Shown here one piece after another: positions 19,648-47,918 of a DNA stretch of 64,000 bases (positions are counted from its first letter, which is position 1; every line of letters starts with the position of its first letter). Under the pieces are notes generated by a model. That model was not told where the DNA came from, ran no database searches, and saw only the letters and a program-made list of their open reading frames with translations. The stretch spans positions 94,854 through 158,853 of the forward strand of contig JBBIRK010000002.1 in assembly GCA_037441845.1 (NCBI GenBank). Reading direction: 5' to 3'. A program made the translations under genes and the position numbers. This DNA is from Candidatus Zixiibacteriota bacterium (GTDB taxonomy: Bacteria > Zixibacteria > MSB-5A5 > UBA10806 > 4484-95).

Positions 19648-21243
19648 TTACTGATTATATCTTTGCTTATACGAACTGCGGAGCGCCTCGGCCTCCTTTG
19701 GCGATAATCCCATCAGCCAAAGATGTTCGTCTTGGGTGAGGAACTCCTCGATTTTCCTTTGGTATTTCGCTTTCAAAGCCGGGCTCTTCAGCTCAGCCGT
19801 CTTTACCACCTCGGGAAGGAATTCCGTATAGAAATGCTTGGATACTTCATACATTCCGTGCCAGTGGGTATAGTCCGGCCCCATCATACTCGCCCCATGG
19901 CGCGCCCGCCTGCCTTCGTGATGCCAGAGTTCGTAGAATATCCATTGCAGGTCATGCTCGAAAGGCGCATCCGCTTTCAGAGCACCGTCCGCCAAAAGCT
20001 CATTCATGAATTGCTGCGCCGGCCTGGCGAACTTGTCGTTGTAAAGCGTGACCAAATCGTCATATTGCTTATAGAAATTATCGACATAGGTGTCATTATG
20101 GCAATTCAAACAGACGCCCTTCATGCTCTCCCGCCGGTCCTTCCAGGTGATTATTTTCGCCACAGCGCGTTCCACCTCGCGATTGACCAGCTTTTCGTTT
20201 TCCACGAACTTTTCGATCGTCTTCACCTTATCCCCGATTGCCGGCAACGCTCTGCCTTCGGGGTAATCTTCTTTGAATCCATCCTCGTAAATCACCAAAT
20301 TCAATTTGGTGCTGATGACCGGCCTCAAGGTCCAGCTTATCCTTTCCCCCACGTCGTGCGAATTGCCCACGGCTATCCCTTGCGGCGTCATGTAGCTTGA
20401 AATATGGCAGGTGGCGCAGGTGGGAGCGGCCGAGTAATCCCGCCCGAGAACCCAATCGCCGTCCTTGTCGAGCGCCATTCGATCGCGATTGGCGTAAAAT
20501 GCGATTCCATGCTTGGATTCGTTGTAGATTTCGATTTGCGGATGATCGGGACCCATGTGGCATTTGCCGCAATTCTCCGGCGATCGCGACAATTTCGCCT
20601 GGAAAGCGTGCCGCGAGTGACAAGCATGACACGACCCTTTCGATCCATCGGGATTCAATCTCCCCATGCCGCTGTTGGGCCAGGTGTTCGGATCGATGAC
20701 CGGCTTGTTTTCCTTGCCCGTCCTCAGGATCTCGCCGTTATCGTCGCGGGCGAATTTGACGATCGCCCCGTGGCATTGCCAGCAGCCGTTGACCGCATCG
20801 GCGATATTTCCCGGCTTGCCGGCCACTTTCTCAGCCAATACGTTGTCGAGGCTGGCTAAAATCTCCCCTGCGCGGGCGTGATGACTCTTGGAAAATTCGT
20901 CGTATTCACGGCTGTGACATTTCGCGCAATCGATCGGCGTAACCAAAGCCGATATATACACACCCTCATGCTGCCAGGCGTCGATATCGGTCTTTTGCGC
21001 GCTATGGCAATCGATACAGCCGACACCCAGTTGAGCATGGCGCGATATTTCCCATTCTTGAACCAGCGCCGGTGCGTCTTTGCGATGGCAATCGATACAG
21101 CCCTTATTGGCTCCAGTGATCACCGGCGTCTCGCCGGCTTCTATCCGATGCCGGCGTGATTCTTGATAGGCGACCAGAAGCAACGCCGCCAGAAAGAAAA
21201 CCGAAAGTATCGCCACCACGTATCTTTTGGCATTAAGAGTCAT
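19648..21243 (-). CDS. Octaheme c-type cytochrome, HAO-like (hydroxylamine oxidoreductase / octaheme nitrite reductase superfamily), N-terminally membrane anchored
   Basis: 531 aa. Eight CXXCH motifs: CIDCH, CIDCH, CAKCH, CWQCH, CHACH, CGKCH, CATCH and CLNCH. N-terminal hydrophobic anchor. Helical C-terminal third. Confidence 0.8.
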   Translation of the reverse strand: MTLNAKRYVVAILSVFFLAALLLVAYQESRRHRIEAGETPVITGANKGCIDCHRKDAPALVQEWEISRHAQLGVGCIDCHSAQKTDIDAWQHEGVYISALVTPIDCAKCHSREYDEFSKSHHARAGEILASLDNVLAEKVAGKPGNIADAVNGCWQCHGAIVKFARDDNGEILRTGKENKPVIDPNTWPNSGMGRLNPDGSKGSCHACHSRHAFQAKLSRSPENCGKCHMGPDHPQIEIYNESKHGIAFYANRDRMALDKDGDWVLGRDYSAAPTCATCHISSYMTPQGIAVGNSHDVGERISWTLRPVISTKLNLVIYEDGFKEDYPEGRALPAIGDKVKTIEKFVENEKLVNREVERAVAKIITWKDRRESMKGVCLNCHNDTYVDNFYKQYDDLVTLYNDKFARPAQQFMNELLADGALKADAPFEHDLQWIFYELWHHEGRRARHGASMMGPDYTHWHGMYEVSKHFYTEFLPEVVKTAELKSPALKAKYQRKIEEFLTQDEHLWLMGLSPKEAEALRSSYKQRYNQ

Positions 21244-21271
21244 TTCAATATCTCCTTCCGTTCGGTCTTGG

Positions 21272-22330
21272 TCATGCTAAACTCTCCCACACGGTCAGCA
21301 CCAGGAAAAGCAAGAATACGATCACCCCTATAACCACCGTGAATATTTCACTTAACTTGAACTTGCGCGAAAGCCATTGTTCGATGAAAGGCCAGAAAAA
21401 GATCCCGCCCATAATCAACATCGTGGCCACCACCGACACTTTAAGCGAGGTCATTTTCAGAAGTCGAAAATTGAAATAAAAAAACCATTCGGGTTTGATA
21501 TGCGCGGGCGTCACCGCGGGATCGGCCGGTTCCCCGAGTCCTGCGGGAAACACCAGCGCGAATATGGTCAATATGTACATCAACAATACCCCGATCGCCA
21601 GCTCGGTCGTTACGTGATCCGGCCAGAAACGGAAATGGCTCTGTTCCGCTGTCACCGATTCGCCCTCGAACCGCAGCTCCGTAACCCCCTGAAGTCGAAT
21701 CAATAAAATATGCAAAGCCAGCAATATGAACATAACCGTCGGCAACACCCCTATATGCAAGATATAAAACCGCGTTAGAGTATTTTCTCCTACCACGGGG
21801 CCGCCCCTCAGAAAATAAGCCACAGTCGACCCGATTAGCGGAATCGCCTCGGCCAGGTTGCAGGCCACGGTCGCGCCCCAGAAACTTTGCTGCTGGAAAA
21901 TCAACGAATAGCCGGTGAATCCGAAGGTCACGGTGGTGAGCAACAGGGCGACACCTATCAGCCAGTTCAATTGCCTCGGATGACGATAGGCGCCGGTCAA
22001 AAATACCCTGAGCATATGCAACAGAACCGCCACGATCATGAAATTCGCCGACCATTTATGCAGCGAACGGATAAACCAGCCGAATCGGATTTCATGGGTA
22101 ATCGTGGCCACGGTTTGATAGGCGTATTCCGCCGAGGGCACATAGTAAAATGTCAGCGCGATACCGGTGATCACCTGGACGATGAATAAATACAAAACCG
22201 TGCCGCCCAGGCAGAACCACCACTTTTTCAAATGATATGGAACCGGCTCGGCTCCCGCATGTCGCAAGAGCTCCCAGTCGAACGGAAACATCTCCTTCAG
22301 CGAGGTTACGATTTTTCTCGGCGACCTCAT
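21272..22330 (-). CDS. Cytochrome b (fused b6/subunit-IV type) of a Rieske/cyt b complex
   Basis: 352 aa. About 8 TM helices. The cytochrome b heme-ligand His pattern (HxxR...H) is visible as HKWSANFMIVAVLLHMLR, and a second His pair follows (YILHIG, LALHILL). A PEWF Qo-site motif is present. Confidence 0.85.
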   Translation of the reverse strand: MRSPRKIVTSLKEMFPFDWELLRHAGAEPVPYHLKKWWFCLGGTVLYLFIVQVITGIALTFYYVPSAEYAYQTVATITHEIRFGWFIRSLHKWSANFMIVAVLLHMLRVFLTGAYRHPRQLNWLIGVALLLTTVTFGFTGYSLIFQQQSFWGATVACNLAEAIPLIGSTVAYFLRGGPVVGENTLTRFYILHIGVLPTVMFILLALHILLIRLQGVTELRFEGESVTAEQSHFRFWPDHVTTELAIGVLLMYILTIFALVFPAGLGEPADPAVTPAHIKPEWFFYFNFRLLKMTSLKVSVVATMLIMGGIFFWPFIEQWLSRKFKLSEIFTVVIGVIVFLLFLVLTVWESLA

Positions 22331-22833
22331 ACTTTTCCCCCGACGCTGACATCGTCCACCTCGATATAAACGACACCGCTCGTCTCATCTACGGTGACGA
22401 CCACTTCGTCAAGTCTTTGTCCGGCGTCGCCCGGAGGACCGGCGATCGCTTTTCCGCTCGGGTCGAAAACTCCGTTGTGACAAGGGCAGAAAAACCGGCT
22501 GTTTTCTTCTTCCCAATGGACACTGCAGCCCAAATGCGGACAGCGCGAACTGAATGCTTTGAATCCGGATTCATCGCGCTTGACAAGGATTACTTTCCCT
22601 TGAAGGTCGTAAAATTGCCTTACCTTGCCCACTTCATATTGATCTATATTGCCGGCGAAAAGCTTGCGTTTCTTGACCCCGGTCCGTTGAGGCATCAGAA
22701 ACAACGCACCCTGAACTCCCAACAAACCGTAGCTTAAGAGTATTCCCGCCCCGGCCAAAAGCGAGGCCAACCACTGGCGCCGATTAAGCGGCTTCGATTC
22801 TTCCATATCGTGACCTCCGGAAAACGCCCGCAT
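22327..22833 (-). CDS. Rieske [2Fe-2S] protein with twin-arginine signal
   Basis: CPHLGC ... CPCHNG Rieske boxes. NRRQWL Tat motif. Overlaps the cyt b start by 4 nt. Alternative start at 22806. Confidence 0.88.
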   Translation of the reverse strand: MRAFSGGHDMEESKPLNRRQWLASLLAGAGILLSYGLLGVQGALFLMPQRTGVKKRKLFAGNIDQYEVGKVRQFYDLQGKVILVKRDESGFKAFSSRCPHLGCSVHWEEENSRFFCPCHNGVFDPSGKAIAGPPGDAGQRLDEVVVTVDETSGVVYIEVDDVSVGGKV

Positions 22834-22953
22834 TTTCGGGCTTTGGCGATCTTTGTAGTTTATTCGAGATCATTCAGCTCTATCATTTTCAGCCGCCTTC
22901 GTGGAACTAATGCAACCGCTTGTGATATTGTATTATTTCCTATCGCTAAGTCT

Positions 22954-22967
22954 TTGACTTAAGTCAA
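22954..22967. promoter_or_regulatory. Perfect 14-bp palindrome TTGACTTAAGTCAA (Crp/Fnr-family type site) upstream of the Rieske operon
   Basis: The palindrome is read directly from the sequence. Its spacing is TTGAC-N4-GTCAA, like the FNR/Crp consensus TTGAT-N4-ATCAA. It lies between the crp/fnr stop and the Rieske start. Confidence 0.5.
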
Positions 22968-22973
22968 TCTTTC

Positions 22974-23648
22974 TCATTTTTCTCCGCGGGCCAACATTTC
23001 GAGCGCCGCCGGATTCAGCACTCGAATTGCGCTCCTCTCCACCCTTATAACCCCGGCCGTGCTCAATTTTCTAAGATTGCGGGAAAGCGTTTCGCCGACC
23101 GTGCCCAGTTTTTTCGCCCACTCCGATTTAGTCATATCCAATTTTATGATGTTTCCACCGCCGGCACGGCATCTTTCGATCAAACTCGCCGCTATTCTTG
23201 CGGACACATCTTTCAAGGCAAGATTGTCGATCAATTGGCTCATTATCCGAAGGTGGCTGCAGAGCGCCTGAATCATCTTCAATCCGACCGCCGGCGATTT
23301 CGCCAGAAGCCGCAAAAATGCGTCGCGCGGACAAAACAGCACTACCGAATCCGCCTGTGCGATACAATTGGCCGGATACTGCCGCCCGTCGAACATCGCG
23401 ACCTCCCCGAAAATCTCCCCCGACTGCGCCAATCGGATAATGACCTCACGACCTTCCGCCGACGACTTGAATATCCTCACCTTGCCATCGAGCAAAACAA
23501 AAAACCCGGTCGCTTCGTCCCCCTCCATGAAAAGCATCTGGCCGCGCGACAACCTTCGAACGGACGTGGCATGGGCGAGATTTGCCAATTCCTTTTTCTC
23601 CAATCCGGCGAATAGATGGCAGTTTTCCAGGAGAGTCGTTGTCCTCAT
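22974..23648 (-). CDS. Crp/Fnr family transcriptional regulator
   Basis: 224 aa. cNMP-binding domain with GEIFGE, and a C-terminal HTH TRQDLANYLG-type region. No N-terminal 4-Cys cluster, so it is not a classical FNR. Confidence 0.8.
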   Translation of the reverse strand: MRTTTLLENCHLFAGLEKKELANLAHATSVRRLSRGQMLFMEGDEATGFFVLLDGKVRIFKSSAEGREVIIRLAQSGEIFGEVAMFDGRQYPANCIAQADSVVLFCPRDAFLRLLAKSPAVGLKMIQALCSHLRIMSQLIDNLALKDVSARIAASLIERCRAGGGNIIKLDMTKSEWAKKLGTVGETLSRNLRKLSTAGVIRVERSAIRVLNPAALEMLARGEK

Positions 23649-23705: not shown

Positions 23706-23735
23706 AATAAAAAAACCCGGGGCGGTTACCCCGGG
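23706..23735 (-). terminator. Rho-independent terminator downstream of T9SS paralog 1
   Basis: 7-bp GC stem CCCGGGG/CCCCGGG with a 6-nt loop, followed by a U-run on the minus strand. Confidence 0.7.
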
Positions 23736-23758
23736 CTACCCCACGGCAATAAGCGTGT

Positions 23759-24646
23759 TTATTTTAGCAGCATCATCTCCCTGGTTTGAACGAAATCCCC
23801 AGCGCTTAACCTATAAAAATACGCCCCCGAGGGAACCGGCTCGCCCGAATCGTTGGTACCATTCCACGAAAATGTGTGAGTTCCCGCCCCCAATGTCCCC
23901 GAGTAAATGGTATTTATTTTTTGTCCAAGAAGATTGAACACTTCGAGCGACACCCGACCCGATTGCGGTATGAGAAATTCTATGTTCGTAGTAGGATTGA
24001 ATGGATTCGGAAAATTCTGCTTCAAAATATAGTCGGTCGGCAAACCCGACACGTCGTCTATCCCGGTTCCCACACCGTAATTGAACGAACCCGGCACGAT
24101 TCTCGGCGTGAAACTGTTCGCGCCGTCCGGCATACCGAAATTGGCGCTTCCCGCGCGCCGATCGCGGGTAGTATCTATGGTCACTATCTGCCTGACCGCA
24201 GTCGGCCTGATCTTGAAAATCATTTCCATGCCGACCACTCGTTGCAATCCTGTATAAAGCGGCGGATTATCCGGTCCGCCCAGATCGGACCAGCCGATTA
24301 TGCTGGCGAAATTGCTGTCCTGGCTGATTCTATACCAAGTGTCATCCCAGCCGCTGAACGCCTCACGCCAAAGTATCGAGTCAAGATAAATCTGGTCATC
24401 GGTCGACGTCCACATCGTGGGCAACGTGAAATCGCTCACCGAGTCATCGGTCACGAAATTAACTTCGACCACCACTCGCGACCAGTTTCCCGGATTATAA
24501 GGGACGTAAATGCCGCTTTGATAAATGACCGTATCCGGAACCCCCGGATCCACTGCATATGCCGATAGGGCCAGCATGGCAACCATTAAAGAGACTACTG
24601 CTGATGCTTTCATCGAGGAAACCTCCCTGCTATGGCTAATGCCCAA
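23759..24646 (-). CDS. Secreted protein of unknown function with T9SS C-terminal sorting domain (paralog 1 of 4)
   Basis: 295 aa. Signal peptide. Shares a conserved N-terminal domain of about 150 aa with the next three genes. C-terminus NFPNPFNP...SGAYFYRL...MMLLK is a type-A T9SS CTD. Confidence 0.75.
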   Translation of the reverse strand: MGISHSREVSSMKASAVVSLMVAMLALSAYAVDPGVPDTVIYQSGIYVPYNPGNWSRVVVEVNFVTDDSVSDFTLPTMWTSTDDQIYLDSILWREAFSGWDDTWYRISQDSNFASIIGWSDLGGPDNPPLYTGLQRVVGMEMIFKIRPTAVRQIVTIDTTRDRRAGSANFGMPDGANSFTPRIVPGSFNYGVGTGIDDVSGLPTDYILKQNFPNPFNPTTNIEFLIPQSGRVSLEVFNLLGQKINTIYSGTLGAGTHTFSWNGTNDSGEPVPSGAYFYRLSAGDFVQTREMMLLK

Positions 24647-25005
24647 AGCATGATATTATTTTCATTAACCATCCTTGTCAAAAATCGTTCCCAAAATCAA
24701 ATTGATTGTGGCCATGCCTACCCATTCGGCAAGTATGGGAACTTTCCCATAATCGTCGCGATAACTTGATTTTCATGAACGAAATATCATTCAGATGCAT
24801 TCCTTGCCGCCGTTTAATTCAATCTACCAGGCTTGTGATTGCTTGATTAATTTAAGGGATAGCACGGCCGTTTTTCTTAATTTCAGTAAAACTTATGAAA
24901 ATCGGTGCAGTCTGTGCGAATAATTTCGTAGCTCGGAAACGAAAACGCCGCTCATCGATGCCATCAGAATCGAATTCGATTTATCAGCCAAAGATATGCT
25001 GGTTT

Positions 25006-25863
25006 TCAGCGAAGCAGAATCATCGTTTTTGTCTCAACGAAACCGCCGGCGGTTAACCGATAGAAATAAACCCCCGAGGGCATCACGGCGCCGGATTCGT
25101 TGCGGCCGTCCCAACGAACGGTGTAGAAACCTGCCTCCCGCTTCCCCCCGACAAGAGTGATTACTTTCTGACCCAGAAGGTTATATATCTCGAGCGCAAC
25201 CTCGGCGGATATCGGCAACTGGAAATCTATACTCGTCTCTGGATTGAACGGATTAGGATAATTCCGGCCAAGCGCGAATTCCTCGGGCAGCGGGCTATCC
25301 TCGCCATCAACACCCGTCGGATACTGATATCTGATAAAACCGCTTCTGAATGCGGGCACGAACGAATACCATCCGTGGGGACCTCCGAAATCTATCGCCC
25401 CGTTTATCGGATCGGTAGTGGTATCGATAACTACGAACTGCTGGCATTCGGCTCCTTGAAGTATCACGAAACGGAGATCCATCCCCCATAACCTTTGCCC
25501 ATTGGTCAATAGCGGCGGATTATCGTCTCCGCCGATATCGGCGAAAGCTATTTGCCTCAGCAAGTTTTGGGCTAACAAAAGAGTATCGTAACAATCATCC
25601 CATTCGGTAAACGTCTCCCGCCAAACCGTACGTCCCGGAAAAATCCTGCCGTCCGTCGAGGTCCAGCGCAGCGGCAGATTCACCCAGACGATCGAATCAT
25701 CGGTGACGAACCATACGTGCACGTAAACCGTGCCGCCGTTAGGCATGCATTCAACGTTAATAGTGTCTATTATGACGCTGTCTCGCGCCCCCGGATCCTG
25801 CGCATAGGCAGCCAAGGTCAATCCGATTATCATCACCATCGCCACATACATTAATTTATTCAT
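25006..25863 (-). CDS. Secreted T9SS-sorted protein, paralog 2 of 4
   Basis: Start at the internal Met with signal peptide (MNKLMYVAMVMI...). Conserved DPGARDSVIIDT...FVTDDS...GGDDNPPLL...WGMDLRF core. C-terminal NYPNPFNP...VYFYRL...MILLR CTD. Confidence 0.75.
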   Translation of the reverse strand: MNKLMYVAMVMIIGLTLAAYAQDPGARDSVIIDTINVECMPNGGTVYVHVWFVTDDSIVWVNLPLRWTSTDGRIFPGRTVWRETFTEWDDCYDTLLLAQNLLRQIAFADIGGDDNPPLLTNGQRLWGMDLRFVILQGAECQQFVVIDTTTDPINGAIDFGGPHGWYSFVPAFRSGFIRYQYPTGVDGEDSPLPEEFALGRNYPNPFNPETSIDFQLPISAEVALEIYNLLGQKVITLVGGKREAGFYTVRWDGRNESGAVMPSGVYFYRLTAGGFVETKTMILLR

Positions 25864-25984
25864 TGGCGCTCCTTGCCGGATTATTATAGCATTCCCTAAA
25901 AGGTCAATATCCCTCGATGGAGTTCCATCCAATTGTCTTACAACGTTATTTTAATCTCCCCTTAAGGAGATTGTCAAGCGCAAT

Positions 25985-26015
25985 AAAAAAACACCACGCC
26001 GAATTCGACGTGGTG
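25985..26015 (-). terminator. Rho-independent terminator of paralog 3 (identical copy at 27053-27084)
   Basis: CACCACG/CGTGGTG stem followed by a 7-nt U-run on the minus strand. Confidence 0.7.
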
Positions 26016-26392
26016 TTGAGGTTGATCGTAATCGCCGGGCTATCGATTCAAAAGCCCCCGCCATCATTCCTCAGCGAAGCATTATCATCTTGTTGGTCTT
26101 GACGAAATCGCCGGCCGTCATCCGATAAAAATATACTCCCGACGGCACCAAGTCACCCGAATCGTTGGTCCCGTTCCAACGCACCGTATGATAACCCGCC
26201 TCACGATAGTCCGATACCAACGTCTTAACCTTCTGACCCAGCAGATTGTAAACTTCCAACGTTACATTGGTGGCCGAGGGCAGCCGGAATTCGATATTGG
26301 TCTCCGGATTGAACGGGTTGGGATAATTCTGCATCAAGGCGATCTCCGTAGGCAACGCCGTCGGCGTATCTCCGATACCTGTGGCACCGCCG
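25985..26392. repeat. About 408-bp near-identical direct repeat, copy A (3' end of paralog 3 plus terminator)
   Basis: Hand alignment: one mismatch (ccgatacc versus ccaatacc) against 27054-27462. Confidence 0.85.
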
Positions 26393-26925
26393 TACCTGAG
26401 AAATCCTCTCTTTAGAGCCGGCACGAAATCATAGTCGCCGCGCGGCCCGCCGAAACCCACCGTGCCGTTTCTCGGGTCCCTAACGGTATCGACCCAGACG
26501 AATTGCGGCGTCGCACCCGGGAATATCACGAACCGCAAATCCATTCCCCAGAGCCTTTGGCCGGCGGTTAGCAATGGGGGATTATCAGCGCCGCCTACAT
26601 CGGCAAAAGCGACCTGTCGTAATAGACGTTCGGCGACGAGCAGCGTATCGTATCGCTCGTCCCACTGATTAAAAACTTCGCGCCAAACCGTGTGCCCCGG
26701 AATTATAAGATTATCCGGCGATGTCCATGTGATAGGCAGATTGACGAACATAATCGAATCATCGGTGACGAAATAGACATGGATATAACGGGTTCCTCCG
26801 CCGGGCAACAAATCCACGTTTACCGTGTCGATGATCAAACTATCGCGGGCGCCCGGATCCTGGGCATCGGCGATAGCAGCCGCCGCAAGCACAATTGCCA
26901 AAATTATGCTATACCATTTCCTCAT
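26071..26925 (-). CDS. Secreted T9SS-sorted protein, paralog 3 of 4
   Basis: 284 aa. About 85% identical to paralog 4 over the N-terminal 175 aa, and 100% identical over the C-terminal ~105 aa. Confidence 0.8.
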   Translation of the reverse strand: MRKWYSIILAIVLAAAAIADAQDPGARDSLIIDTVNVDLLPGGGTRYIHVYFVTDDSIMFVNLPITWTSPDNLIIPGHTVWREVFNQWDERYDTLLVAERLLRQVAFADVGGADNPPLLTAGQRLWGMDLRFVIFPGATPQFVWVDTVRDPRNGTVGFGGPRGDYDFVPALKRGFLRYGGATGIGDTPTALPTEIALMQNYPNPFNPETNIEFRLPSATNVTLEVYNLLGQKVKTLVSDYREAGYHTVRWNGTNDSGDLVPSGVYFYRMTAGDFVKTNKMIMLR

Positions 26926-27052
26926 CTTTGGCTCCTTTCCAAGAAATTACAAGGAAACTACATCCGCCTTTGATATTCCCCGTTGTATATCATCATAATA
27001 TATAACTATATTAGTTTATAATCCGCTTCATAAAACTGTCAAGAAGAATCGA

Positions 27053-27084
27053 AAAAAAACACCACGCCGAATTCGACGTGGTGT
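27053..27084 (-). terminator. Rho-independent terminator of paralog 4
   Basis: Identical hairpin and U-run to the 25985-26015 copy. Confidence 0.7.
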
Positions 27085-27462
27085 TGAGGTTGATCGTAAT
27101 CGCCGGGCTATCGATTCAAAAGCCCCCGCCATCATTCCTCAGCGAAGCATTATCATCTTGTTGGTCTTGACGAAATCGCCGGCCGTCATCCGATAAAAAT
27201 ATACTCCCGACGGCACCAAGTCACCCGAATCGTTGGTCCCGTTCCAACGCACCGTATGATAACCCGCCTCACGATAGTCCGATACCAACGTCTTAACCTT
27301 CTGACCCAGCAGATTGTAAACTTCCAACGTTACATTGGTGGCCGAGGGCAGCCGGAATTCGATATTGGTCTCCGGATTGAACGGGTTGGGATAATTCTGC
27401 ATCAAGGCGATCTCCGTAGGCAACGCCGTCGGCGTATCTCCAATACCTGTGGCACCGCCGTA
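27054..27462. repeat. About 408-bp near-identical direct repeat, copy B (3' end of paralog 4 plus terminator)
   Basis: See copy A. Confidence 0.85.
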
Positions 27463-27993
27463 TCTCAGGTAACCTTTCTTAACCACCGGCCGGAACGACC
27501 AATTGCCGTTGGGACCGCCGAAATCGATCGAACCGTTTATGGGGTCGCGGGTCGTATCGACCCAAACGAACTGCGGCACCGCACCCGGGAATATCACGAA
27601 ACGCAAATCCATTCCCCAAAGCCGCTGTCCGTTGGTCAAAAGCGGCGGATTATCGCTTCCACCGATATCAGCCCAGGCCACATGCCGAAGCAATCTCTGG
27701 GCAACCAACAGCGTGTCAAAATGATCGTCCCACTGAGTGAAGACCTCGCGCCAAACCGTGTGGCCGGGTATGATAAGATTATCCGGCGATGTCCAAGTTA
27801 TAGGCAGATTTACGAACATAATCGAATCATCGGTGACGAAATAGACATGGACATAACGGGTTCCTCCACCCGGTAACAAATCCACGTTAATCGTGTCGAT
27901 GATGACCGTGTCGCGTATGCCTGGATCCTGGGCAAATGCCCCAAAAGCCATCAACAGCACAAGCCCGGCCGCAACAAAAACCAACCTCTTCAT
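27139..27993 (-). CDS. Secreted T9SS-sorted protein, paralog 4 of 4
   Basis: 284 aa. Signal peptide, conserved core domain and identical CTD. AT-rich promoter region upstream (27994-28176). Confidence 0.8.
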   Translation of the reverse strand: MKRLVFVAAGLVLLMAFGAFAQDPGIRDTVIIDTINVDLLPGGGTRYVHVYFVTDDSIMFVNLPITWTSPDNLIIPGHTVWREVFTQWDDHFDTLLVAQRLLRHVAWADIGGSDNPPLLTNGQRLWGMDLRFVIFPGAVPQFVWVDTTRDPINGSIDFGGPNGNWSFRPVVKKGYLRYGGATGIGDTPTALPTEIALMQNYPNPFNPETNIEFRLPSATNVTLEVYNLLGQKVKTLVSDYREAGYHTVRWNGTNDSGDLVPSGVYFYRMTAGDFVKTNKMIMLR

Positions 27994-28176
27994 GATAGGC
28001 TCCTATTGGTTAAAGTTAAACAAAAGATTCTTTCGCAGCTAAACCCCTAATCCCAACCGAAAAGCTGGGATTACATACTATCAATTATGTAAATATTATA
28101 CTTCGTTTTGAAATTATGTCAAGTATTTTTTAAGTCAAAAAATTATAATAAATTAGAGGATGTTGAATACCCACTG

Positions 28177-29553
28177 CTAAGATTGCGCTATCGGTTCTTT
28201 TTCCTGCAAACCATACTTTTTAATCTTTTCGAAAAGAGTCGTATAGTCCACTTTCAGGATTTCCGCCGCTTTGCGCTTGTTGCCCCGCGTCTGCGCCAGC
28301 ACCCGCTTGATAAGCCCCTTTTCGGCTTCAGCTTGCGCCAGAGCGCCGACCTCTTTGAGTCCCGCCCCTTCACGTAACCTTATCTCCGCCGTCGATGGCA
28401 GTCGGATCGCCAGATGCTCGGGAGTGATGATGTTTCCGCTGCATAAGATTATGGCTCTCTCGATCGTGTTTTCCAGCTCCCGAACATTACCCGGCCAATG
28501 GTATTTCTCGAGCAATGCCAACGAATCTTTGGAAAGCCTCTTGGTCTTTTTATTCATCTCCCGGCAATATTTATCGATAAAATAGGTTGCCAGATGAGGG
28601 ATATCCTCGGTGCGCTCCCGCAAGGGTGGTATCGTTATCGGAAATACCGAAAGCCGATAATATAAATCTTCCCTGAATTTCTTGGCGGCTATCGCTTCCT
28701 TGAGATCGACGTTCGAGGCCGCGATCAGCCTGACATCGACCGAAATTACCTTCGTTCCCCCGAGGCGCTCGAAATTCTTCTCCTGAAGCACTCTCAGCAG
28801 TTTGGCTTGAAGCGCGATATCGAGGTCGCCGACTTCGTCGAGAAAGATCGAACCTCCGTTGGCGATCTCGAATTTCCCCATCTTCCGGGCAACCGACCCG
28901 GTATAAGCCCCCCGCTCCGATCCGAATAACTCGTTTTCGAGCAATTCATGGGGTATGGCGGCGCAGTTTATAGTCACATAGGGCCCTTTACTTCGATTCG
29001 ACAATTGATGTATCGCCCGGGCGAATAGCTCTTTGCCGGTGCCCGATTCGCCAAGAAAAAGAACCGTCGTATCCGATTCGGCCACCTTGCGCGCAAGACT
29101 GGAAACTTCCTTTATCTTCTCCGAAACCCCGATAATCTCCCCGAACCCGTGATTCAGCTCCTCGCGCAACAGGCTGTTTTCCGCCACCAGCCGACGATTT
29201 TCGAGCGCCCTCTTGATAATCACGGAAAGATGATCGGTATCGAACGGTTTGGTTAAAAAATCAAACGCCCCCAAGCGCATGGCTTCCACCGCGGTCTCGA
29301 TCGTACCGAAAGCGGTCATGACAATCACCGGAGCCTCAGGGTCATGCTCTTTAACTTGAGATAATACTTCGATTCCATCAAGAGAAGGCAGCTTCAGGTC
29401 CGTTAGAATGACATCGAACCGCTTTTCTTTGACCTTTTCCAGCCCGGCTTTGCCGTCGCTGACCGCCTCCACCTCATACCCCTCGGATTCGAGTGTGGCC
29501 GCCAGCATCCTCTGCATGCTGTCTTTATCTTCAATAACCAGAACTGAAGGCAT
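28177..29553 (-). CDS. Sigma-54-dependent response regulator (NtrC family: REC, AAA+ sigma-54 activation, Fis-type HTH)
   Basis: 458 aa. Receiver Asp in DVILTDLKLP. Walker A GESGTGKE. A GAFTGA-like (ESELFGHEKGAFTGA-type) region. C-terminal HTH. Confidence 0.9.
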   Translation of the reverse strand: MPSVLVIEDKDSMQRMLAATLESEGYEVEAVSDGKAGLEKVKEKRFDVILTDLKLPSLDGIEVLSQVKEHDPEAPVIVMTAFGTIETAVEAMRLGAFDFLTKPFDTDHLSVIIKRALENRRLVAENSLLREELNHGFGEIIGVSEKIKEVSSLARKVAESDTTVLFLGESGTGKELFARAIHQLSNRSKGPYVTINCAAIPHELLENELFGSERGAYTGSVARKMGKFEIANGGSIFLDEVGDLDIALQAKLLRVLQEKNFERLGGTKVISVDVRLIAASNVDLKEAIAAKKFREDLYYRLSVFPITIPPLRERTEDIPHLATYFIDKYCREMNKKTKRLSKDSLALLEKYHWPGNVRELENTIERAIILCSGNIITPEHLAIRLPSTAEIRLREGAGLKEVGALAQAEAEKGLIKRVLAQTRGNKRKAAEILKVDYTTLFEKIKKYGLQEKEPIAQS

Positions 29554-32116: not shown

Positions 32117-34270
32117 TCACCCTCGTGCAGGATTGGAAATCCCCTTCTCCTGCGCTTTCACGGACCCGGATAAAACTGTATCGAGCAGCGATTTTATTTT
32201 GCCCATTTCAAACGGCTTCGCCAATATCGCATCGAGCCCACCCTTGGCCGCGGTTTCCTCATCGATTTGATTTCCCCATCCGGAAATCATGATAACCGGA
32301 ATCTCAGGGCGTAATTCCTTGCAGATCCGCGTCACGTCCCAGCCGCTCAGACCGGGCATACCCAAATCGGTGATCACCAGATCGAAAGGTTGCTGGCGGA
32401 ACAATTCCACCCCGCGGTCGCCGGACGATGCCGAACACACCTGATGTCCCAGATATTCGAGCATATCGGAAACGACTTCCCTGATATTATCGTCGTCATC
32501 GATCAACAGGATACGCGCCTTATGCACTTCCTTGACCGCAGGCTGTTGCTTTTCCTCTTTGGCTATTTCTTTGGCCAACGGAATCGTGATAATGATGGTC
32601 GTTCCCACGCCAACTTTGGAACTGACGTCGATTTCGCCCTTGTGCCTGCCGATCACGCCGTAGGCAACCGACATCCCCATCCCCGTCCCCTGCTTTCCCT
32701 TGGTGGTGAAAAACGGGAAAAAGATCCGTTTGAGAGTGGCTTCATCCATGCCGATACCGTTATCCTCGATCCGGACCACGGCGTTCTGTTCACGGCTGAT
32801 AGCCTCGATACGGATTACGCCGCCTTTCGCCAGAGCATCGACCGAGTTCAAAATAAGATTGGAGAACGCCTCGACCAGTTCAGAGGAGTTCCCGAGAATC
32901 GGTAAACGAGGTTCATGCTCGTAACGCAGCTCGATAACTGTCCCCACCTTCTGGCATTCGTCTTTCCATCGAGGACGGGTCATCTCGATCGAGTCTTGAA
33001 TGACCCGCACCAGATCGATCATTTCGTAACCGCTGCCCGAGGATACCCGCGTGAAATTCTGCATCCGCTGAACCGTCTTGGCGCCCGCCAGCGTGACTTT
33101 CTCGATCTGCCTCAGATGCTCGGCGATCTGATCGTCTTTGACCACACGCAACAACAGCTGAGTGCGGCCGAGAATGGTCCCGAGAATGTTATTGAAATCG
33201 TGCGCCACCCCACCGGCCATTTCGCCCAATGCCCGTAGTTTCTCGGTCATTATCAATTGCTCCTGCGTATTGGCCAACTCCTGATAAGCTTTCTCCAGGC
33301 TCTCGTACAGTTTGGCGTTTTCGATCGCATCGGCGGTTTGGCGGGCGAATATGGTCAATATATCGAGATCCTCCTGCTTGAATACTTTGCAGCGATACGA
33401 ACGCAACGTAATGACCCCGATAACTTCCCCGGACCAGGTGAGAGGAGCACAGATCAAAGATTCGGGATCGTCGGGCGTCCCCGGAACCTGTATAGCGCGG
33501 GGATCGACATGACTTTGATTGGAAATCAGCCCGATCCCCGACTTGGCTACCAGGCCGGTCAAGCCCTCGCCCACTTTCAAGCGTATCCTGGCGATCTGCT
33601 CGGAATGCTTGGGATCTATGGTCACCAGCGGAGACAAAATGCCGCTTTTTTTATCGAGTATAAAAATCGAACCGCCGTCCGCCCCTACAATATCCATAGA
33701 GAGACGAACCGCTTTTTCCAGAACTTCTTTATAGTTCAGCGAGGAATAGATTGCAGTGGAAAGCTCAAGCAACGCCGCCAGCTTGGCATTCGATTCTTTA
33801 CCCTTGTCTTCCTTCAACGACAGCTTGAGCGAAAGCGCAGTCTGTTCGGTGATCAAAGCCGCCTTATCGAACGTATTTATCGTATAATCCTGCGGCGTCT
33901 TCTCCCACCCCCAAACCAGAAAACCGCAGCCATGCGATTCCATGTCGAAAGGAACCGCCAGCACATTGCGACATTTGAGTTTCCTGCGAAATACGGCCAC
34001 CGGAAGAAAGTCGTCGCGGTCGAAAATGGGCAAAGTGCCATCGGCCTCGCGGCAGGTCCTGCGTTTCAGGCAAGACTCACGAGCTGCGGCCCTGATTTCA
34101 CTCAGCAGTTCTCCAATTTCCAAATTATCGGGTTTTTCGTTGATGAACAACTGACCGTTCTGGAAATCAGAGTCGAATATGACCAGCGCGAAATAATCGG
34201 CCGCAAGAATACGAAGCGCCCTCGTGGAAACCGCATTGAAGATGGAAATGACCGTATCTTTATCCGGCAT
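32117..34270 (-). CDS. Hybrid sensor histidine kinase/response regulator with tandem GAF domains
   Basis: 717 aa. GAF region. HisKA H-box AHDFNNIL. HATPase N/G boxes (NLILNSVDA, GTGMGM). C-terminal REC domain. Confidence 0.85.
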   Translation of the reverse strand: MPDKDTVISIFNAVSTRALRILAADYFALVIFDSDFQNGQLFINEKPDNLEIGELLSEIRAAARESCLKRRTCREADGTLPIFDRDDFLPVAVFRRKLKCRNVLAVPFDMESHGCGFLVWGWEKTPQDYTINTFDKAALITEQTALSLKLSLKEDKGKESNAKLAALLELSTAIYSSLNYKEVLEKAVRLSMDIVGADGGSIFILDKKSGILSPLVTIDPKHSEQIARIRLKVGEGLTGLVAKSGIGLISNQSHVDPRAIQVPGTPDDPESLICAPLTWSGEVIGVITLRSYRCKVFKQEDLDILTIFARQTADAIENAKLYESLEKAYQELANTQEQLIMTEKLRALGEMAGGVAHDFNNILGTILGRTQLLLRVVKDDQIAEHLRQIEKVTLAGAKTVQRMQNFTRVSSGSGYEMIDLVRVIQDSIEMTRPRWKDECQKVGTVIELRYEHEPRLPILGNSSELVEAFSNLILNSVDALAKGGVIRIEAISREQNAVVRIEDNGIGMDEATLKRIFFPFFTTKGKQGTGMGMSVAYGVIGRHKGEIDVSSKVGVGTTIIITIPLAKEIAKEEKQQPAVKEVHKARILLIDDDDNIREVVSDMLEYLGHQVCSASSGDRGVELFRQQPFDLVITDLGMPGLSGWDVTRICKELRPEIPVIMISGWGNQIDEETAAKGGLDAILAKPFEMGKIKSLLDTVLSGSVKAQEKGISNPARG

Positions 34271-37200
34271 GGCTGTATTCCACTCCGTATATGCTTAATC
34301 TGCCGACCAGGGTATTGAAACGATCCTGATCCGAAGGCATCCCTTTCAAATAAAACGTTTCTTTCCAATCGGCGCCGAATCCGCTTGTTCGCGATTTATC
34401 CGAAATCACCGAGATAATCGGCAAATTCCAGTATTCGACCTTCAACTGCTTAATCAGGTTCGACGCTTCGCCGCCGAACGAATCGATATCGACCAGAACA
34501 GCGCGGATCGATTTCGTCTTGAGCAACCGCCCAAGGCTTTTTATATCCGCAGCTTTTTCGCCGCGATTGCCCGACTGTAAGATCAATCTCGATATATTTT
34601 CGCAAAACGATTCGGACCCGCTCAAAATGGCGAAAACGAGCCCGCCGCCCATAATTCGTGATTCCGTGAACTTGGGCAAAACTATATTGAATGTCGTCCC
34701 CTTGCCCGGGTCGCTTTCAACCGTTATTTCACCGCCATGTCCCTTGATAATCGCATCGACCATGGTCAAACCGAGTCCGGTTCCGCTCCGGCCCTTAGTC
34801 GTGAAGAAAGGATCGAATATTCTTTTGACCACTTGGGGCTCCATGCCGGACCCGTTGTCCGAAACCGATATTCTAATTTCGTGATCGCCGGCTTCGGCGG
34901 CGACTTCGATTTTACCCGCTTTTTCGATAGCGTCGGCGGCGTTCAAGATCAGGTTGTTGAACACCTCGATCATCTGCGTCCGATCGCCTTTCGCCCGAAG
35001 ATCGCCGCCGAATTTCGTGGAAATCTCGATCGATTTGCGGCAACCGGGATCCTCCCAGCGCGAACGAGCCATTTCGATCGAATCGTTTATTATCTCCTTG
35101 AGATTTAACTGCGTAAATATCGCTTCACTCTTGTTCTTGGCGAATTCGTTTATCCGCGATAAAATGTTGACGCCGTCGGTCGCTGATTTCTCGATCACAT
35201 TCAACCCTTTGATTATCGTTTCTTCGGGAAGCGTCCCTTTTTCCGCCAGCCCATGGCGAAGAAGTTGCGCCCGCCCGACCACGGCCGCCAAAATGTTCTT
35301 GAAATCGTGCGCGATGCCAGCCGCCACCTCGCCCAAGGCTTTCAACTTCTCGGCCTGTATCAATTTCTCTTGGGTTTCGTTCAGTCTGATATAAGCGTCT
35401 TTGACCTCACCGTAAAGCTGGGCGTTATTGAGAGCGATTTCGAGATGCGCCGAAACATCTCTCAACAAATCCTTATCCTGCTTGCTGAACCCCTCGGCTC
35501 TGGTATTGCCCACGATAAGGAATCCCTTGATGGCGCCCCGCTGCCTGATCGGGCAGATCGCCAGATGATTGATCCCCCGCGAAAGAAATCCATCGCGCGC
35601 CCTGACTGCGGTTTCCAAACCTCCCGCAGGCACGAACAGCGACTCGCCGGACGCCAGCACCTTCTCGAATTCGGCCTTAAGGCTTTCGGCGTCGATCACA
35701 CCGCCCGCGCCATGGGAATCGCCGCTTTTTACCATATACTCGGAATGAACCGCATAACCGGTCTCGCTCCTGATTACCAGAACCGACATGTTGAAGTCGG
35801 TTAATTCCGACATCGTCTTTGCGATCCGATGAAACAGCTCGTCTATTTCGAGCGTGGCCGAGATCGCTTGATATATGCGATCGACCAACGCCAGCCGGTT
35901 TGCCTTCTCCAAAATCCCGCGATACAGCTTGATATTGCTGATCGCCACCGCCAAAAATTCGGCGAAAGTCTGTATCGTGGAAACATCGATGGCAGAAAAC
36001 GAACTCAGACGCCGATCGTTCAAATCGAGGACGCCGAAAAAGTCGTAACCGGCTATCAACGGCAGGCAGAAACGCGACTTTATACCTTCGATTGAATCGG
36101 TCTCCTGTGCGGCTCGCTTTTCATCGGCAAGTATATTCGACATCTGCAGAGCCGCCTTGCCCACCAGGCCCTCGCCCATTTGGAAACTTGTCCCAGGTTC
36201 ATACCCGTCGCCGTAGCGGCAACTCTGTTTTACCAAACTCAAAGCTCCGTTTTCGGTGGGCATGAATACGGCCGCATGATCGAAACCGAATCCCTCGGTC
36301 AATCCTTTCACCGCCTCCTCGAGTAACTGACCTTCGTCCAGCACTCCCGAAAGCCGTTTCACCAGCCCATTGATCAGAGCCAGCTTTTGCATCCTTTCTT
36401 TTTCGAGCTGTTTCAGTTTGATTTTTTCGTAAGCCGCCGCTACCTGATCCGCAATCGATGCCAGCAGATCTTCCTCACGCTTACCGAATGCGTATTTCTG
36501 ACGCGACTCCACATCGAGAACACCCACTACGATACCGTTGAGGATCACGGGGACTGCCAGTTCCGAGGCCGTATTGCCGGTGGAAACGACGAATCGATCG
36601 TCTTTGCTCACGTCCCCCACATTGATTATTTTGCCGGTGGCCGCCGCGAATCCGGTTATCCCCTCCTTGCCTATCGCCAGCCTTTTTCCGAATTCGATCT
36701 TTGGACAATCACCGGTCATCGAGGTCAGGCAAAGCTCGTCCGTGGCGAAATCCCTCGTGAAAAACGAACAAGTCGAAAAATTGAAATTTTCCGAAATCGC
36801 CTTAAGCACCTTTTCGAAAAACGGAATCAGATCAAGATCGGAATTCAACGCCTGCCCCACGTCGAACATGGTCTTGATTTGGGCGACCTTGTCGGTGACC
36901 ATCAGATAAAGCCTGGCGTTGGCGATCGCCGCCGCCGCCTGAGCCACCAGCGCCGCACTAAGATCAACCACCTCATTATCCAAACGGGCCCGTTCGGCCG
37001 TCCTCTGCTCGACCATGATAAGAATTCCGGTCAACTTTCCGGCATGCTTCAACGGCGCTATCAACGTCTTGGCGCTTCCCTTGATTTTAAGCACCGCGGC
37101 GTGGCTATCGGGAATTTTGGCGATCTCCTCGGCCTCGAGCAGAATCGGCGATCCCAACATCACCACTTCTTGCAGCCACGCCATATCGTCCACGTTCAAC

Positions 37201-38213
37201 TTCCGCTCCTCGGGGGCGAATATCTCGCCTCCGCGTTCGGAATAATAGGTCTGCACATACATTTCTTTGCCGGAATCCGAATTCAGCATGACATAGCTGA
37301 AACTGCAACCGAACGCTTGCCCGAGATACGTCACCAAAACCCGACAAACTTCATCGAGCTCGAGCGACGACGATATGGCAAGCGAGGTGTTCACCAGCAT
37401 CGCGTTTTTCTTGTTTTCCTTTTCGATCAAGCGTTCTTTATGATGGTTTTCGTAGAACCATCCGGCGGCGATCCCGATAAAATCAAGTTTCGGAAAAAAG
37501 GCTTCCCGGTTCGTCGGAATGCGCTTATGGGCGAAAATAAGGATTCCGGCGAACTGGCGGTTAGGCATCAGCGGCACCAGCCAGGCCGCGCTGTATTCCT
37601 TGAACATGGCGGCGACCGGCGATGGCAATTGTCTTGGGTCATCATAATAACGCGGCACTTCATAACGGGAAATTTCTTTCATCAAACCTTCGGGGTCTAT
37701 CGTCAGACGATCGGACGGCTCGTATGCGAGATTGTTGAACCCTTTCAAGGACAACTTGCCGTTCTGATCCAGAACGAACGCAGCCGCAGCATCGAACCCG
37801 AGATGTTCGCAGGCGAGCCCGAGAAGGTGGCAATAGCCGGCGACGAATGTTTTATCCTCGCCTATGTTGTCTTTGATCAGCTGAAAAAGATGTATGACTC
37901 CGGTGCCGATTCCGCTGGTGGTGCCGGGCCTGAACTCTATTCCGATCGCATCGGTCGAATTGCCTGCCTCGCCTTCTTCATTCGTCGATCTATGCAATCT
38001 GCCGAGAATCCTATCGACCGCCGAATAAAGTATCGCCCCCAGAGCGATCCCGAGCGGCAGATAAATCAAATCCGCTCGCCTTAAACCCGTTTCCGTGCCT
38101 AATACCGCGCAGCCGAGGATAAGGAGGATAATGCCGAATGAGCGTATCGGCATAGTCCAATTCCGAAACGGACCGCCGGCAAGCGATTGCGAAACATCTT
38201 TCCCCCTAAGCAT
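34260..38213 (-). CDS. Large multi-GAF membrane sensor histidine kinase with degenerate C-terminal receiver-like domain
   Basis: 1317 aa. N-terminal TM helices. At least four GAF-like segments. H-box AHDFKNIL. HATPase GTGLGL. About 170-aa C-terminal extension. Confidence 0.8.
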   Translation of the reverse strand: MLRGKDVSQSLAGGPFRNWTMPIRSFGIILLILGCAVLGTETGLRRADLIYLPLGIALGAILYSAVDRILGRLHRSTNEEGEAGNSTDAIGIEFRPGTTSGIGTGVIHLFQLIKDNIGEDKTFVAGYCHLLGLACEHLGFDAAAAFVLDQNGKLSLKGFNNLAYEPSDRLTIDPEGLMKEISRYEVPRYYDDPRQLPSPVAAMFKEYSAAWLVPLMPNRQFAGILIFAHKRIPTNREAFFPKLDFIGIAAGWFYENHHKERLIEKENKKNAMLVNTSLAISSSLELDEVCRVLVTYLGQAFGCSFSYVMLNSDSGKEMYVQTYYSERGGEIFAPEERKLNVDDMAWLQEVVMLGSPILLEAEEIAKIPDSHAAVLKIKGSAKTLIAPLKHAGKLTGILIMVEQRTAERARLDNEVVDLSAALVAQAAAAIANARLYLMVTDKVAQIKTMFDVGQALNSDLDLIPFFEKVLKAISENFNFSTCSFFTRDFATDELCLTSMTGDCPKIEFGKRLAIGKEGITGFAAATGKIINVGDVSKDDRFVVSTGNTASELAVPVILNGIVVGVLDVESRQKYAFGKREEDLLASIADQVAAAYEKIKLKQLEKERMQKLALINGLVKRLSGVLDEGQLLEEAVKGLTEGFGFDHAAVFMPTENGALSLVKQSCRYGDGYEPGTSFQMGEGLVGKAALQMSNILADEKRAAQETDSIEGIKSRFCLPLIAGYDFFGVLDLNDRRLSSFSAIDVSTIQTFAEFLAVAISNIKLYRGILEKANRLALVDRIYQAISATLEIDELFHRIAKTMSELTDFNMSVLVIRSETGYAVHSEYMVKSGDSHGAGGVIDAESLKAEFEKVLASGESLFVPAGGLETAVRARDGFLSRGINHLAICPIRQRGAIKGFLIVGNTRAEGFSKQDKDLLRDVSAHLEIALNNAQLYGEVKDAYIRLNETQEKLIQAEKLKALGEVAAGIAHDFKNILAAVVGRAQLLRHGLAEKGTLPEETIIKGLNVIEKSATDGVNILSRINEFAKNKSEAIFTQLNLKEIINDSIEMARSRWEDPGCRKSIEISTKFGGDLRAKGDRTQMIEVFNNLILNAADAIEKAGKIEVAAEAGDHEIRISVSDNGSGMEPQVVKRIFDPFFTTKGRSGTGLGLTMVDAIIKGHGGEITVESDPGKGTTFNIVLPKFTESRIMGGGLVFAILSGSESFCENISRLILQSGNRGEKAADIKSLGRLLKTKSIRAVLVDIDSFGGEASNLIKQLKVEYWNLPIISVISDKSRTSGFGADWKETFYLKGMPSDQDRFNTLVGRLSIYGVEYSHAG

Positions 38214-38218
38214 ACGAA

Positions 38219-44084: not shown

Positions 44085-44097
44085 GGCCAGGTGCTCC

Positions 44098-45216: not shown

Positions 45217-45821
45217 TTGGGCTCACCTCCCGCGATGGCAACGGTCTCCCTGGCGTTATATGATATAAGTTTGAAATTCGCCGTCAGCACATGGTCTTTG
45301 CGCCGCATGCTTTTGCTCTGGGTCGTTCCTTGCGATTGGTCGATTGCGGTTATCTGCAAATCGCTGATCGCGACTATGAAAGGCAGGTTGGCCACCCGCG
45401 CCAGAAATTCTCCGAGCCCGTCGTAGGTGGCGCTCAGCTCGATCAAATACGGATTGCCGATAAAATATTCGCCGGTCACTGCCGCCTGTGGTGTGATACT
45501 GAGCACCGCCGTATTCGACAGCTGGGCGGCGATATGCAGCTGCGAAATAAACTCCTCGTCGCGCTTGGTCTCCGGCAGATACATCCGGACGCTGTTAAAA
45601 CGTTTCAGAAGCGCATCATAATCGGACTGCAACGTTTCCAGCGTGGCGGCTTTCTGCTCCACGGCATGCAGCCGGGTCAATATCTGCTCCAGACGCGTTT
45701 TCTTGACCGCCAGGTCCTGGGAGTATGGAGTATAGAATTTTTCGTACCAAACGTAAACGAGCGCCAGAAATGCAATTATGATTAAAATCAGAATCTGATT
45801 CTTGGGGTCTTTAAAATCCAT
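45213..45821 (-). CDS. pilO: Type IV pilus assembly protein PilO
   Basis: 202 aa. Single N-terminal TM, coiled coil, PilO-type periplasmic domain. Operon position. Confidence 0.75.
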   Translation of the reverse strand: MDFKDPKNQILILIIIAFLALVYVWYEKFYTPYSQDLAVKKTRLEQILTRLHAVEQKAATLETLQSDYDALLKRFNSVRMYLPETKRDEEFISQLHIAAQLSNTAVLSITPQAAVTGEYFIGNPYLIELSATYDGLGEFLARVANLPFIVAISDLQITAIDQSQGTTQSKSMRRKDHVLTANFKLISYNARETVAIAGGEPK

Positions 45822-45865
45822 ACATCCCTCCCACAGGACTAAAAGACCGAGTCAGCTATTTTATG

Positions 45866-47634: not shown

Positions 47635-47918
47635 AGCCGCCTCTTTGACAATTGTTGCTTTTCAAGATAGAACGGAACCTATTACAATCACCCTATACTG
47701 TCAAGGACTTTTAGAAGCCCTGAATCCATCTGTCAAGGATAATATCGTCCGTTCAAACCAAAAGTTAACTTGCGACACCAAAAAATGAAAAGCCCTTCAC
47801 ACCGTCCCTCGCCGCCTTCCCATAACGATTCCGACCGCCCCCGCGAAAACCGGCCGCAAATATCTCCGATGTTAACTATACTTAACAATACGGTGGGTTC
47901 CGATTCCCTCGATCCCCG

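Follow-up and report, generated by a model that had tools for sequence, protein, structure and literature searches.

A conserved tandem array of small type IX secretion cargo proteins with predicted cohesin-fold modules in a Candidatus Zixiibacteriota bacterium

Introduction

Protein assembly through cohesin-dockerin pairs is regarded as largely a trait of Firmicutes cellulosomes, and surveys of metagenome-assembled genomes (MAGs) by hidden Markov model (HMM) count cohesins with the Pfam and InterPro models. Cargo of type IX secretion systems (T9SS) carries a C-terminal domain (CTD) that directs translocation across the outer membrane and is then cleaved, with the cargo either linked to the surface or released. 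Here we describe four consecutive paralogous genes, c1 to c4, on contig JBBIRK010000002.1 of a Candidatus Zixiibacteriota bacterium, within a 64-kb stretch that was analysed as a whole and is referred to as the window; each encodes a small T9SS cargo protein with a single module predicted to have the cohesin fold.

The closest described proteins are OlpA, OlpC and SdbA of Clostridium thermocellum, which are small and combine one cohesin with a cell-surface anchoring module; OlpA and OlpC are also the best structural matches to the module described here, and the role that we propose for it, holding dockerin-bearing proteins on the cell surface, is likewise theirs. There are several differences, however. 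First, the C. thermocellum proteins are held by surface-layer homology (SLH) repeats in a Gram-positive wall, whereas c1-c4 have a T9SS type-A CTD in a diderm bacterium of the Fibrobacteres-Chlorobi-Bacteroidetes (FCB) group; no SLH repeat was matched in c1-c4 by Pfam or NCBIfam. Secondly, sequence identity is only 10-14% and the Pfam Cohesin model misses c1-c4. Thirdly, a GG-DNPPL-TNGQR loop is specific to the family described here, and no counterpart of the C. thermocellum dockerin partners was found in the window or in related loci. The c1-c4 proteins may work in the manner of these anchoring scaffoldins, but are not members of that SLH-anchored family.

A second system, and a precedent for cohesins on a T9SS tail, is the scaffoldin-like protein of 'Ca. 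Stygibacter' (Cloacimonadota), which has 3,755 aa with tandem cohesins, carbohydrate-binding modules and a T9SS CTD, and occurs in the same MAG as dockerin enzymes (PMC8542988). Like c1-c4, it joins cohesin modules to a T9SS CTD in a lineage of the FCB group that is uncultured, and its attachment to the surface is deduced in the same manner (PMC8542988), but its many cohesins are recognisable by InterPro and lie in one polypeptide, whereas here there are four separate single-module genes of about 285 aa whose modules are invisible to HMMs, with no dockerins found in the window or related loci. Non-cellulosomal cohesin-like modules were surveyed by Peer et al. 2009, as cited in PMC8542988; these too (e.g. 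that of Archaeoglobus fulgidus, 2xdh, matched here by Foldseek with an E-value of 4.5e-7) are isolated modules outside cellulosomes, often of unknown partner, but they have neither a T9SS tail nor a conserved array of tandem paralogues. Neither the fold nor the system is new here; the novelty lies in a divergent, HMM-invisible cohesin subfamily whose members are small cargo proteins of the T9SS, encoded in conserved tandem arrays. The Pfam and InterPro models miss an entire branch of cohesin-fold modules, which the T9SS delivers one to each small protein, and whose genes form conserved arrays. Among the papers searched, none connects Zixibacteria and dockerins.

Organization of the c1-c4 genes and proteins

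The genes and the parts of c1 are as follows.

27139-27993, minus strand: c1, 284 aa; signal peptide, cohesin-fold domain and T9SS type-A CTD
27460-27930, minus strand: c1 cohesin-fold domain, residues 22-178, from the AlphaFold2 model and Foldseek
27142-27408, minus strand: c1 T9SS type-A C-terminal sorting domain, from library matches and tblastn
26071-26925, minus strand: c2, 284 aa; an extra paralogue of the c1 type (OG1), in this genome only
25006-25863, minus strand: c3, 285 aa, starting at the ATG at 25863 (the TTG that would give 308 aa is an unlikely start)
23759-24613, minus strand: c4, 284 aa from the ATG at 24613; a divergent, old paralogue lineage

A sequence-only reading of the window had described four tandem paralogues of 284-308 aa with a signal peptide, a conserved N-terminal domain and a T9SS type-A CTD. 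The list of open reading frames (ORFs) bears this out in number, order and position, but the quoted lengths of 308 and 295 aa stem from upstream TTG codons; we prefer the ATG starts, which give 284-285 aa, because AGGAG or GGGAGG Shine-Dalgarno sequences precede them and they agree with the N-termini of the orthologues. The paralogy is far above chance (tblastn E-values of 1e-33 to 1e-116), with c2, c3 and c4 being 84%, 64% and 50% identical to c1, and tblastn found no further copy of the N-terminal domain in the window. The sequence motifs listed for that domain are exact in c1-c3, but c4 departs from them (DPGVPDTVIYQS; GGPDNPPLYTGLQRVVGMEMIF).

Each protein consists of a signal peptide, the cohesin-fold module of about 160 aa, a short Gly/Thr/Pro linker and the type-A CTD. 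The CTD is matched by TIGR04183 (T9SS type A sorting domain) in all four proteins at 38.0-44.7 bits (44.7 in c1) against a cutoff of 23, over residues ~201-281, and the C-terminal ~89 aa are also matched by Por_Secre_tail (22-33 bits) and FlgD_ig. The N-termini, read by eye and not with a predictor, are those of Sec signal peptides: a basic n-region leads into a hydrophobic core, and AxA precedes the conserved (Q/V)DPG, the four cleavage motifs being GAFA/QDPG, ADA/QDPG, AYA/QDPG and AYA/VDPG. We note that the predicted cleavage puts Gln at position +1 in c1-c3 (~27930, 26862 and 25800) and in most family members, and Val in the c4-type proteins; a 'Q-rule' (N-terminal pyroglutamate) has been described for secreted proteins of Bacteroidetes, and the Gln of c1-c3 agrees with it.

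The N-terminal domain has a predicted cohesin fold

Sequence libraries see only the CTD: Pfam and NCBIfam report nothing for the N-terminal ~175 aa of c1-c4 even at E<=1, in agreement with the earlier description of the domain as unrecognised, and in public databases these proteins are named 'hypothetical protein' or 'T9SS type A sorting domain-containing protein'. Relatives had to be sought exhaustively. A word-indexed search of 5.8 billion clusters was too insensitive, returning one relative with the single domain and 18 with an alignment, whereas a HMMER profile search of 1.84 billion representatives gave 126 clusters, 84 of them at E<=1e-10. The family comprises about 120 clusters at 50% identity; most members have 265-295 aa and the same architecture as c1-c4, and none of those checked has an annotation beyond 'hypothetical' or T9SS cargo. 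Five giant proteins with 7-9 profile matches each (P0073, P0095, P0101, P0122 and P0124) were considered as scaffoldins and rejected as spurious cumulative matches; they were left out of the family because four of them are repeat proteins of the SdrD_B or Big_2 kind, Pfam gives no significant match for P0122, and the Cohesin model matched none of the five.

A predicted structure was obtained for the c1 domain from an alignment of 59 members, which proved necessary: AlphaFold2 gave a useless model with five sequences (predicted local distance difference test, pLDDT, of 44), and one with a pLDDT of 94.1 and a predicted template-modelling score (pTM) of 0.87 with 59. Foldseek searches of the PDB with this model return cohesins at all of the first ~40 ranks, with a probability of 1.0. 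The best match is OlpA (3ul4_A; E-value 1.6e-8, probability 1.0, TM-score 0.69 by query and 0.81 by target), followed by the type-I cohesins of ScaB, ScaC, CipA and OlpC (4dh2) and by the non-cellulosomal Archaeoglobus cohesin, with type II cohesins ranking weaker; TM-scores lie at 0.64-0.71 by query length and reach 0.81 by target length, with sequence identities of 10-14% throughout. The strand order given by DSSP is consistent with a cohesin, a jelly-roll beta-sandwich of nine strands. On the strength of this model we consider it very probable that the domain has the cohesin fold. The sequence-only reading had not recognised a known fold, and on this point it is superseded; the predicted fold is known, though as a protein-docking fold and neither an enzyme nor a lectin, the kinds of fold that had been envisaged as an alternative to a novel one. 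Its inclusion of binding modules among the possible functions was well placed.

Sequence evidence points in the same direction through distant members of the family. With Pfam Cohesin (PF00963), P0063 scores 38.3 bits, above the cutoff of 24.1, in a match that falls within the region covered by the family profile, and P0092 and P0085 score lower, at 21-23 bits; Cohesin is the sole Pfam family that recurs among the 59 aligned members (four at E<1). By way of these bridging members homology to cohesins is plausible, and the domain can be described as a highly diverged, type-I-like cohesin module.

Surface docking as the proposed function

We propose that each gene encodes a small T9SS cargo protein whose single diverged cohesin-fold module serves as a surface docking site for dockerin-bearing partners, and give this reading a probability of roughly 0.55. 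The signal peptide would target the protein to the periplasm and be cut off after AxA, and the type-A CTD would steer the protein through the T9SS and normally be removed, with the cargo then attached to the outer surface or released. If attached, as we infer, the exposed beta-sandwich of ~160 aa would act as a socket for partner proteins, of which the likeliest would be those with dockerin or dockerin-like Ca-binding modules, and the T9SS tail would stand in for the SLH anchor of the single-cohesin proteins OlpA and OlpC. The old paralogue types, of which there are three (c1/c2, c3 and c4, with 45-65% identity), would differ in docking specificity; paralogue-specific positions are somewhat enriched on the presumed 8-3-6-5 face at 12/30 versus 10/46, which is not significant (Fisher p=0.12), the strands having been assigned to sheets from the canonical topology and not from coordinates.

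In the window, three other genes also encode cargo with a T9SS CTD.

49308-51341, minus strand: M1 aminopeptidase with a T9SS CTD
51360-54452, minus strand: M36/fungalysin-like metallopeptidase with an FTP propeptide and a T9SS CTD
63332-63961, minus strand: small protein with a T9SS CTD

These genes suggest that the T9SS pathway exists and is in use, and that a proteolytic exoproteome is exported by it.

Dockerins themselves are associated with the family elsewhere. About 10 of the 126 family clusters (~8%) have dockerin repeats in the same polypeptide as the domain, a strong enrichment, and Pfam Dockerin_1 confirms them in P0085 (39.8 bits), P0107 (27.8) and P0092 (24.0). That dockerin-type proteins specifically are the partners of these modules we hold tentatively, at slightly less than even odds.

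Several observations weigh against surface docking of dockerins. Motif scans and annotation reveal no dockerin-bearing gene, either in the window or across the ~150 kb that the related loci (L001-L012) make up, and none of the T9SS machinery genes (PorU/PorV/SprA/GldKLMN) is among the window ORFs that were scanned. The sequence similarity to true cohesins is marginal: Pfam Cohesin does not match c1-c4 at E<=1, a sequence-profile search of the PDB with the N-terminal domain gave no significant match, and hhalign of the 59-sequence alignment against a very shallow, four-sequence cohesin alignment was not significant (P=0.064 over 37 columns), the aligned part being beta1-3 only, in register. Finally, the most invariant feature of the family is a loop, D-x-GG-x-DNPPL-x-T-x-G-Q-R, for which we know of no counterpart in canonical cohesins; as it is nearly invariant and family-specific it is a candidate functional site, and the binding mode may therefore differ from that of canonical cohesins.

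The same absence of dockerins nearby, the marginal similarity and the family-specific loop would suit a cohesin-like beta-sandwich exported by the T9SS in some other role, whether as an adhesin, as a module binding carbohydrate, mineral or protein, or as a self-associating component of a surface coat. Lower Foldseek matches, which include cohesin-like modules of C. perfringens and the CLIPPER adhesin domain, are also in keeping with this, as is a T9SS protein with FN3 repeats that is a conserved neighbour of some of the arrays (see below). However, genuine type-I cohesins, which bind dockerins, lead the structural matches both in score and in number, and the dockerin fusions are strongly enriched, so we consider a role of this kind possible but distinctly less probable than dockerin docking. 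If dockerin binding is correct, the surface organisation of exoenzymes has been under-called in uncultured FCB bacteria of sediments and digesters, and the family offers new orthogonal docking pairs for the engineering of surface display; if another ligand is bound, it provides an entry point to the cohesin fold in a new use.

Conservation of the array among relatives

Related arrays fall into two clades. In the first, four relatives (L002, L005/L006 and L011) carry a three-gene array, c1, c3 and c4, in the same neighbourhood as in the window, as follows.

L002 (from a MAG that bears the label 'uncultured Ignavibacteria'): regulator 3' end, c1, c3, c4 5' end
L005: IspA, UbiE, SNase, regulator, c1, c3...
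L006: ...c3, c4, Crp, Rieske, cytochrome b, multihaem cytochrome
L011 (array seen in full): histidine kinase, IspA, UbiE, SNase, regulator, c1, c3, c4, Crp, Rieske, cytochrome b

Identity matrices split the genes into clean orthologous groups, with identities of 90-93% for c1 (L002, L005), 65-77% for c3 (L002, L005/L006, L011) and 84-90% for c4 (L006, L011). The c3 orthologues of L005 (11007-11711) and L006 (250-1104) come from different metagenome samples and are 100% identical where shared; L005 and L006 therefore probably derive from one organism and jointly give a regulator-c1-c3-c4-Crp array. The c2 gene is missing from all of these three-gene arrays, and a tree of the N-terminal domains places it with the c1 type.

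In the second clade, made up of L003 (labelled Zixibacteria), L004, L007-L010 and L012, what is conserved is a pair, one gene of c1 type and one of c4 type; for example, the c4-type partner in L004 (L004b) shares 56% identity with the N-terminal domain of c4. These pairs have other surroundings: upstream lie genes for an aldehyde:ferredoxin oxidoreductase, a 4Fe-4S protein and a membrane protein, and downstream those for a cupin and the FN3-repeat T9SS protein. The FN3-repeat protein, which also ends in a T9SS CTD, lies on the opposite strand to the array (L004 4525-6087; L007 13012-14406; L012 13003-14514), and could be functionally linked to the clade-2 cohesin arrays.

Because arrays are conserved in both clades, the tandem arrangement must be old, with only c2 specific to this genome. 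The array had been seen as a lineage-specific expansion, with single-copy orthologues in relatives as the contrary expectation; c1, c3 and c4 do have 1:1 syntenic orthologues in four relatives, which overturns the expansion as a description of the whole array, and c2 alone is an addition.

Gene conversion and purifying selection

The two genes of c1 type share an identical tract.

27053-27441, minus strand: c1 copy, 389 nt, 100% identical to 25985-26373
25985-26373, minus strand: c2 copy, 389 nt

The tract consists of the last 303 nt of the coding sequence plus the terminator and has sharp edges, and the synonymous divergence (dS) of c1 and c2 is 0 in the CTD as compared with 0.90 in the N-terminal domain. 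The combination of 389 identical nucleotides with a diverged N-terminal domain shows recent gene conversion of the sorting tail between c1 and c2. A second patch of ~93% nucleotide identity lies within the N-terminal domain (27734-27899 versus 26666-26831, with flanks at 62-70%) and suggests mosaic or repeated c1/c2 conversion.

Ratios of nonsynonymous to synonymous divergence (dN/dS) are 0.03 for c1 and its L002 orthologue (L002a), 0.10 for c3 and L002b, 0.10 for c4 and L004b, and 0.15 for c1 and c2, such that purifying selection is seen in every comparison made. These values bear on the earlier proposal that the genes are a lineage-specific tandem expansion of a surface family of novel fold, acting as a decoy or variation system, for which the tandem paralogues, the recent conversion tract and the genome-specific c2 could be cited. 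The fold is a known one, however, c1, c3 and c4 have 1:1 orthologues in conserved synteny, and the conversion tract covers the sorting tail with its terminator but leaves out the exposed domain. Because selection is purifying throughout (dN/dS of 0.03-0.15) and no diversifying selection is seen, we exclude a variation or decoy system and regard it as barely credible.

Transcription and the adjacent regulator

The predicted transcription signals of the array are as follows.

28095-28122, minus strand: c1 σ70-type promoter, TTGACA-N16-TATAAT (12/12); position kept in L002, L005 and L011
27058-27085, minus strand: c1 intrinsic terminator, 12-bp stem and T-run
27013-27042, minus strand: c2 σ70-type promoter, TTGACA-N18-TAAACT, or TATAAA one base upstream
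25990-26017, minus strand: c2 intrinsic terminator, identical to that of c1
25948-25977, minus strand: c3 σ70-type promoter, TTGACA-N18-TAAAAT; TTGACA...ATAAAAT kept in L002 and L005
24653-24697, minus strand: conserved regulatory block upstream of c4, TTTTGGGAACGATTTTTGACAAGGATGGTTAAT...
23714-23737, minus strand: c4 intrinsic terminator, 10-bp stem and T-run

From these footprints every gene of the array is predicted to be a separate transcription unit, with c1-c3 apparently served by σ70-type promoters and c4 by a conserved promoter of different build. Upstream of c4, a 17-mer (TTGGGAACGATTTTTGA) is 100% conserved in four genomes (the window, L002, L006 and L011) while its flanks drift, and a core, GGGAAY-GAWWTTTG-N9-[G/C]TTWAW, is also found upstream of the clade-2 c4-type genes (L004, L007, L010 and L012); the element lies 65-85 nt upstream of the c4-type genes (at ~2607 in L002, ~1428 in L006 and ~8847 in L011). 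It can be read as GGAAC-N17-GTT, which is the consensus of extracytoplasmic function (ECF) σ promoters, as GG-N10-GA/GT, which is atypically σ54-like, or as an overlapping σ70-like TTGACA-N17-TAATAT. Regulation of c4 may thus differ from that of c1-c3; no ECF σ gene was found in the window.

Immediately upstream of the array on the same strand, as the sequence-only reading had correctly noted, is a σ54 enhancer-binding regulator.

28177-29553, minus strand: NtrC-type σ54 enhancer-binding response regulator (Sigma54_activat at 233 bits, Response_reg, HTH_8)

The array could in principle form a σ54 regulon unit under this protein: the adjacency is kept in the four clade-1 relatives, and the c4 block has GG-N10-G(A/T) spacing with 5/7 bases of the -24 element. 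However, consensus and weighted σ54 scans upstream of c1-c3 gave best scores of 8.5-9.5/15, as compared with a background mean of 10.05 per 210 nt, and no -24/-12 site stands above background there; instead, conserved σ70 hexamers occupy these regions and terminators separate the genes. The c4 element has no canonical -12 GC and fits the ECF-σ consensus at least equally well. The suggested σ54 dependence is not supported for c1-c3, and c4 offers only a conserved, non-canonical GG-N10-GA. Moreover, the regulator is adjacent in clade 1 only, with no such gene within 10 kb of the clade-2 arrays, and histidine kinases with GAF domains encoded upstream are more plausible partners for it. Although an immediate neighbour, this protein is therefore unlikely to control the array. 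Just one σ54 -24/-12 site in the window is near-perfect, TGGCACGCAAATTGCC at 512-527 on the plus strand (14.5/15). It lies ~400 nt upstream of a gene for a pyridoxal phosphate-dependent enzyme (924-1937), and a σ54 activator would more plausibly act there than on the cohesin array.

We may speculate on a wider arrangement, less likely than not, in which uncultured FCB-group bacteria (Zixibacteria- and Ignavibacteria-labelled MAGs) would have a hitherto unrecognised, T9SS-anchored cohesin-dockerin display system, with each of the three cohesin types, separated long ago, recruiting its own class of dockerin-tagged exoprotein through the GG-DNPPL-TNGQR loop and with c4 under an alternative σ factor. 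If true, this would be a Gram-negative, modular and condition-dependent 'mini-cellulosome' that is invisible to current cohesin HMMs.

Neighbouring genes in the window

Immediately downstream of the array (19648-23648, minus strand) are genes for a Crp/FNR-family regulator, a Rieske protein, a cytochrome b and a 531-aa multihaem cytochrome; this cluster is syntenic in L006 and L011 and looks like a bc-type respiratory module. On the other side, three large GAF-domain signalling proteins are encoded at 32117-40348 (minus strand), upstream of IspA, UbiE, SNase and the σ54 regulator. One is a hybrid histidine kinase that includes a receiver domain, the second (1317 aa) combines four GAF domains with a histidine kinase, and the third is a GAF protein of 709 aa; they could plausibly serve the σ54 response regulator as sensory partners. 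Farther upstream (42744-48548, minus strand) is a cluster resembling those of type IV pili and type II secretion, with genes for PilM, PilN, PilO, a 372-aa ORF, a secretin and a GspH-like pseudopilin.

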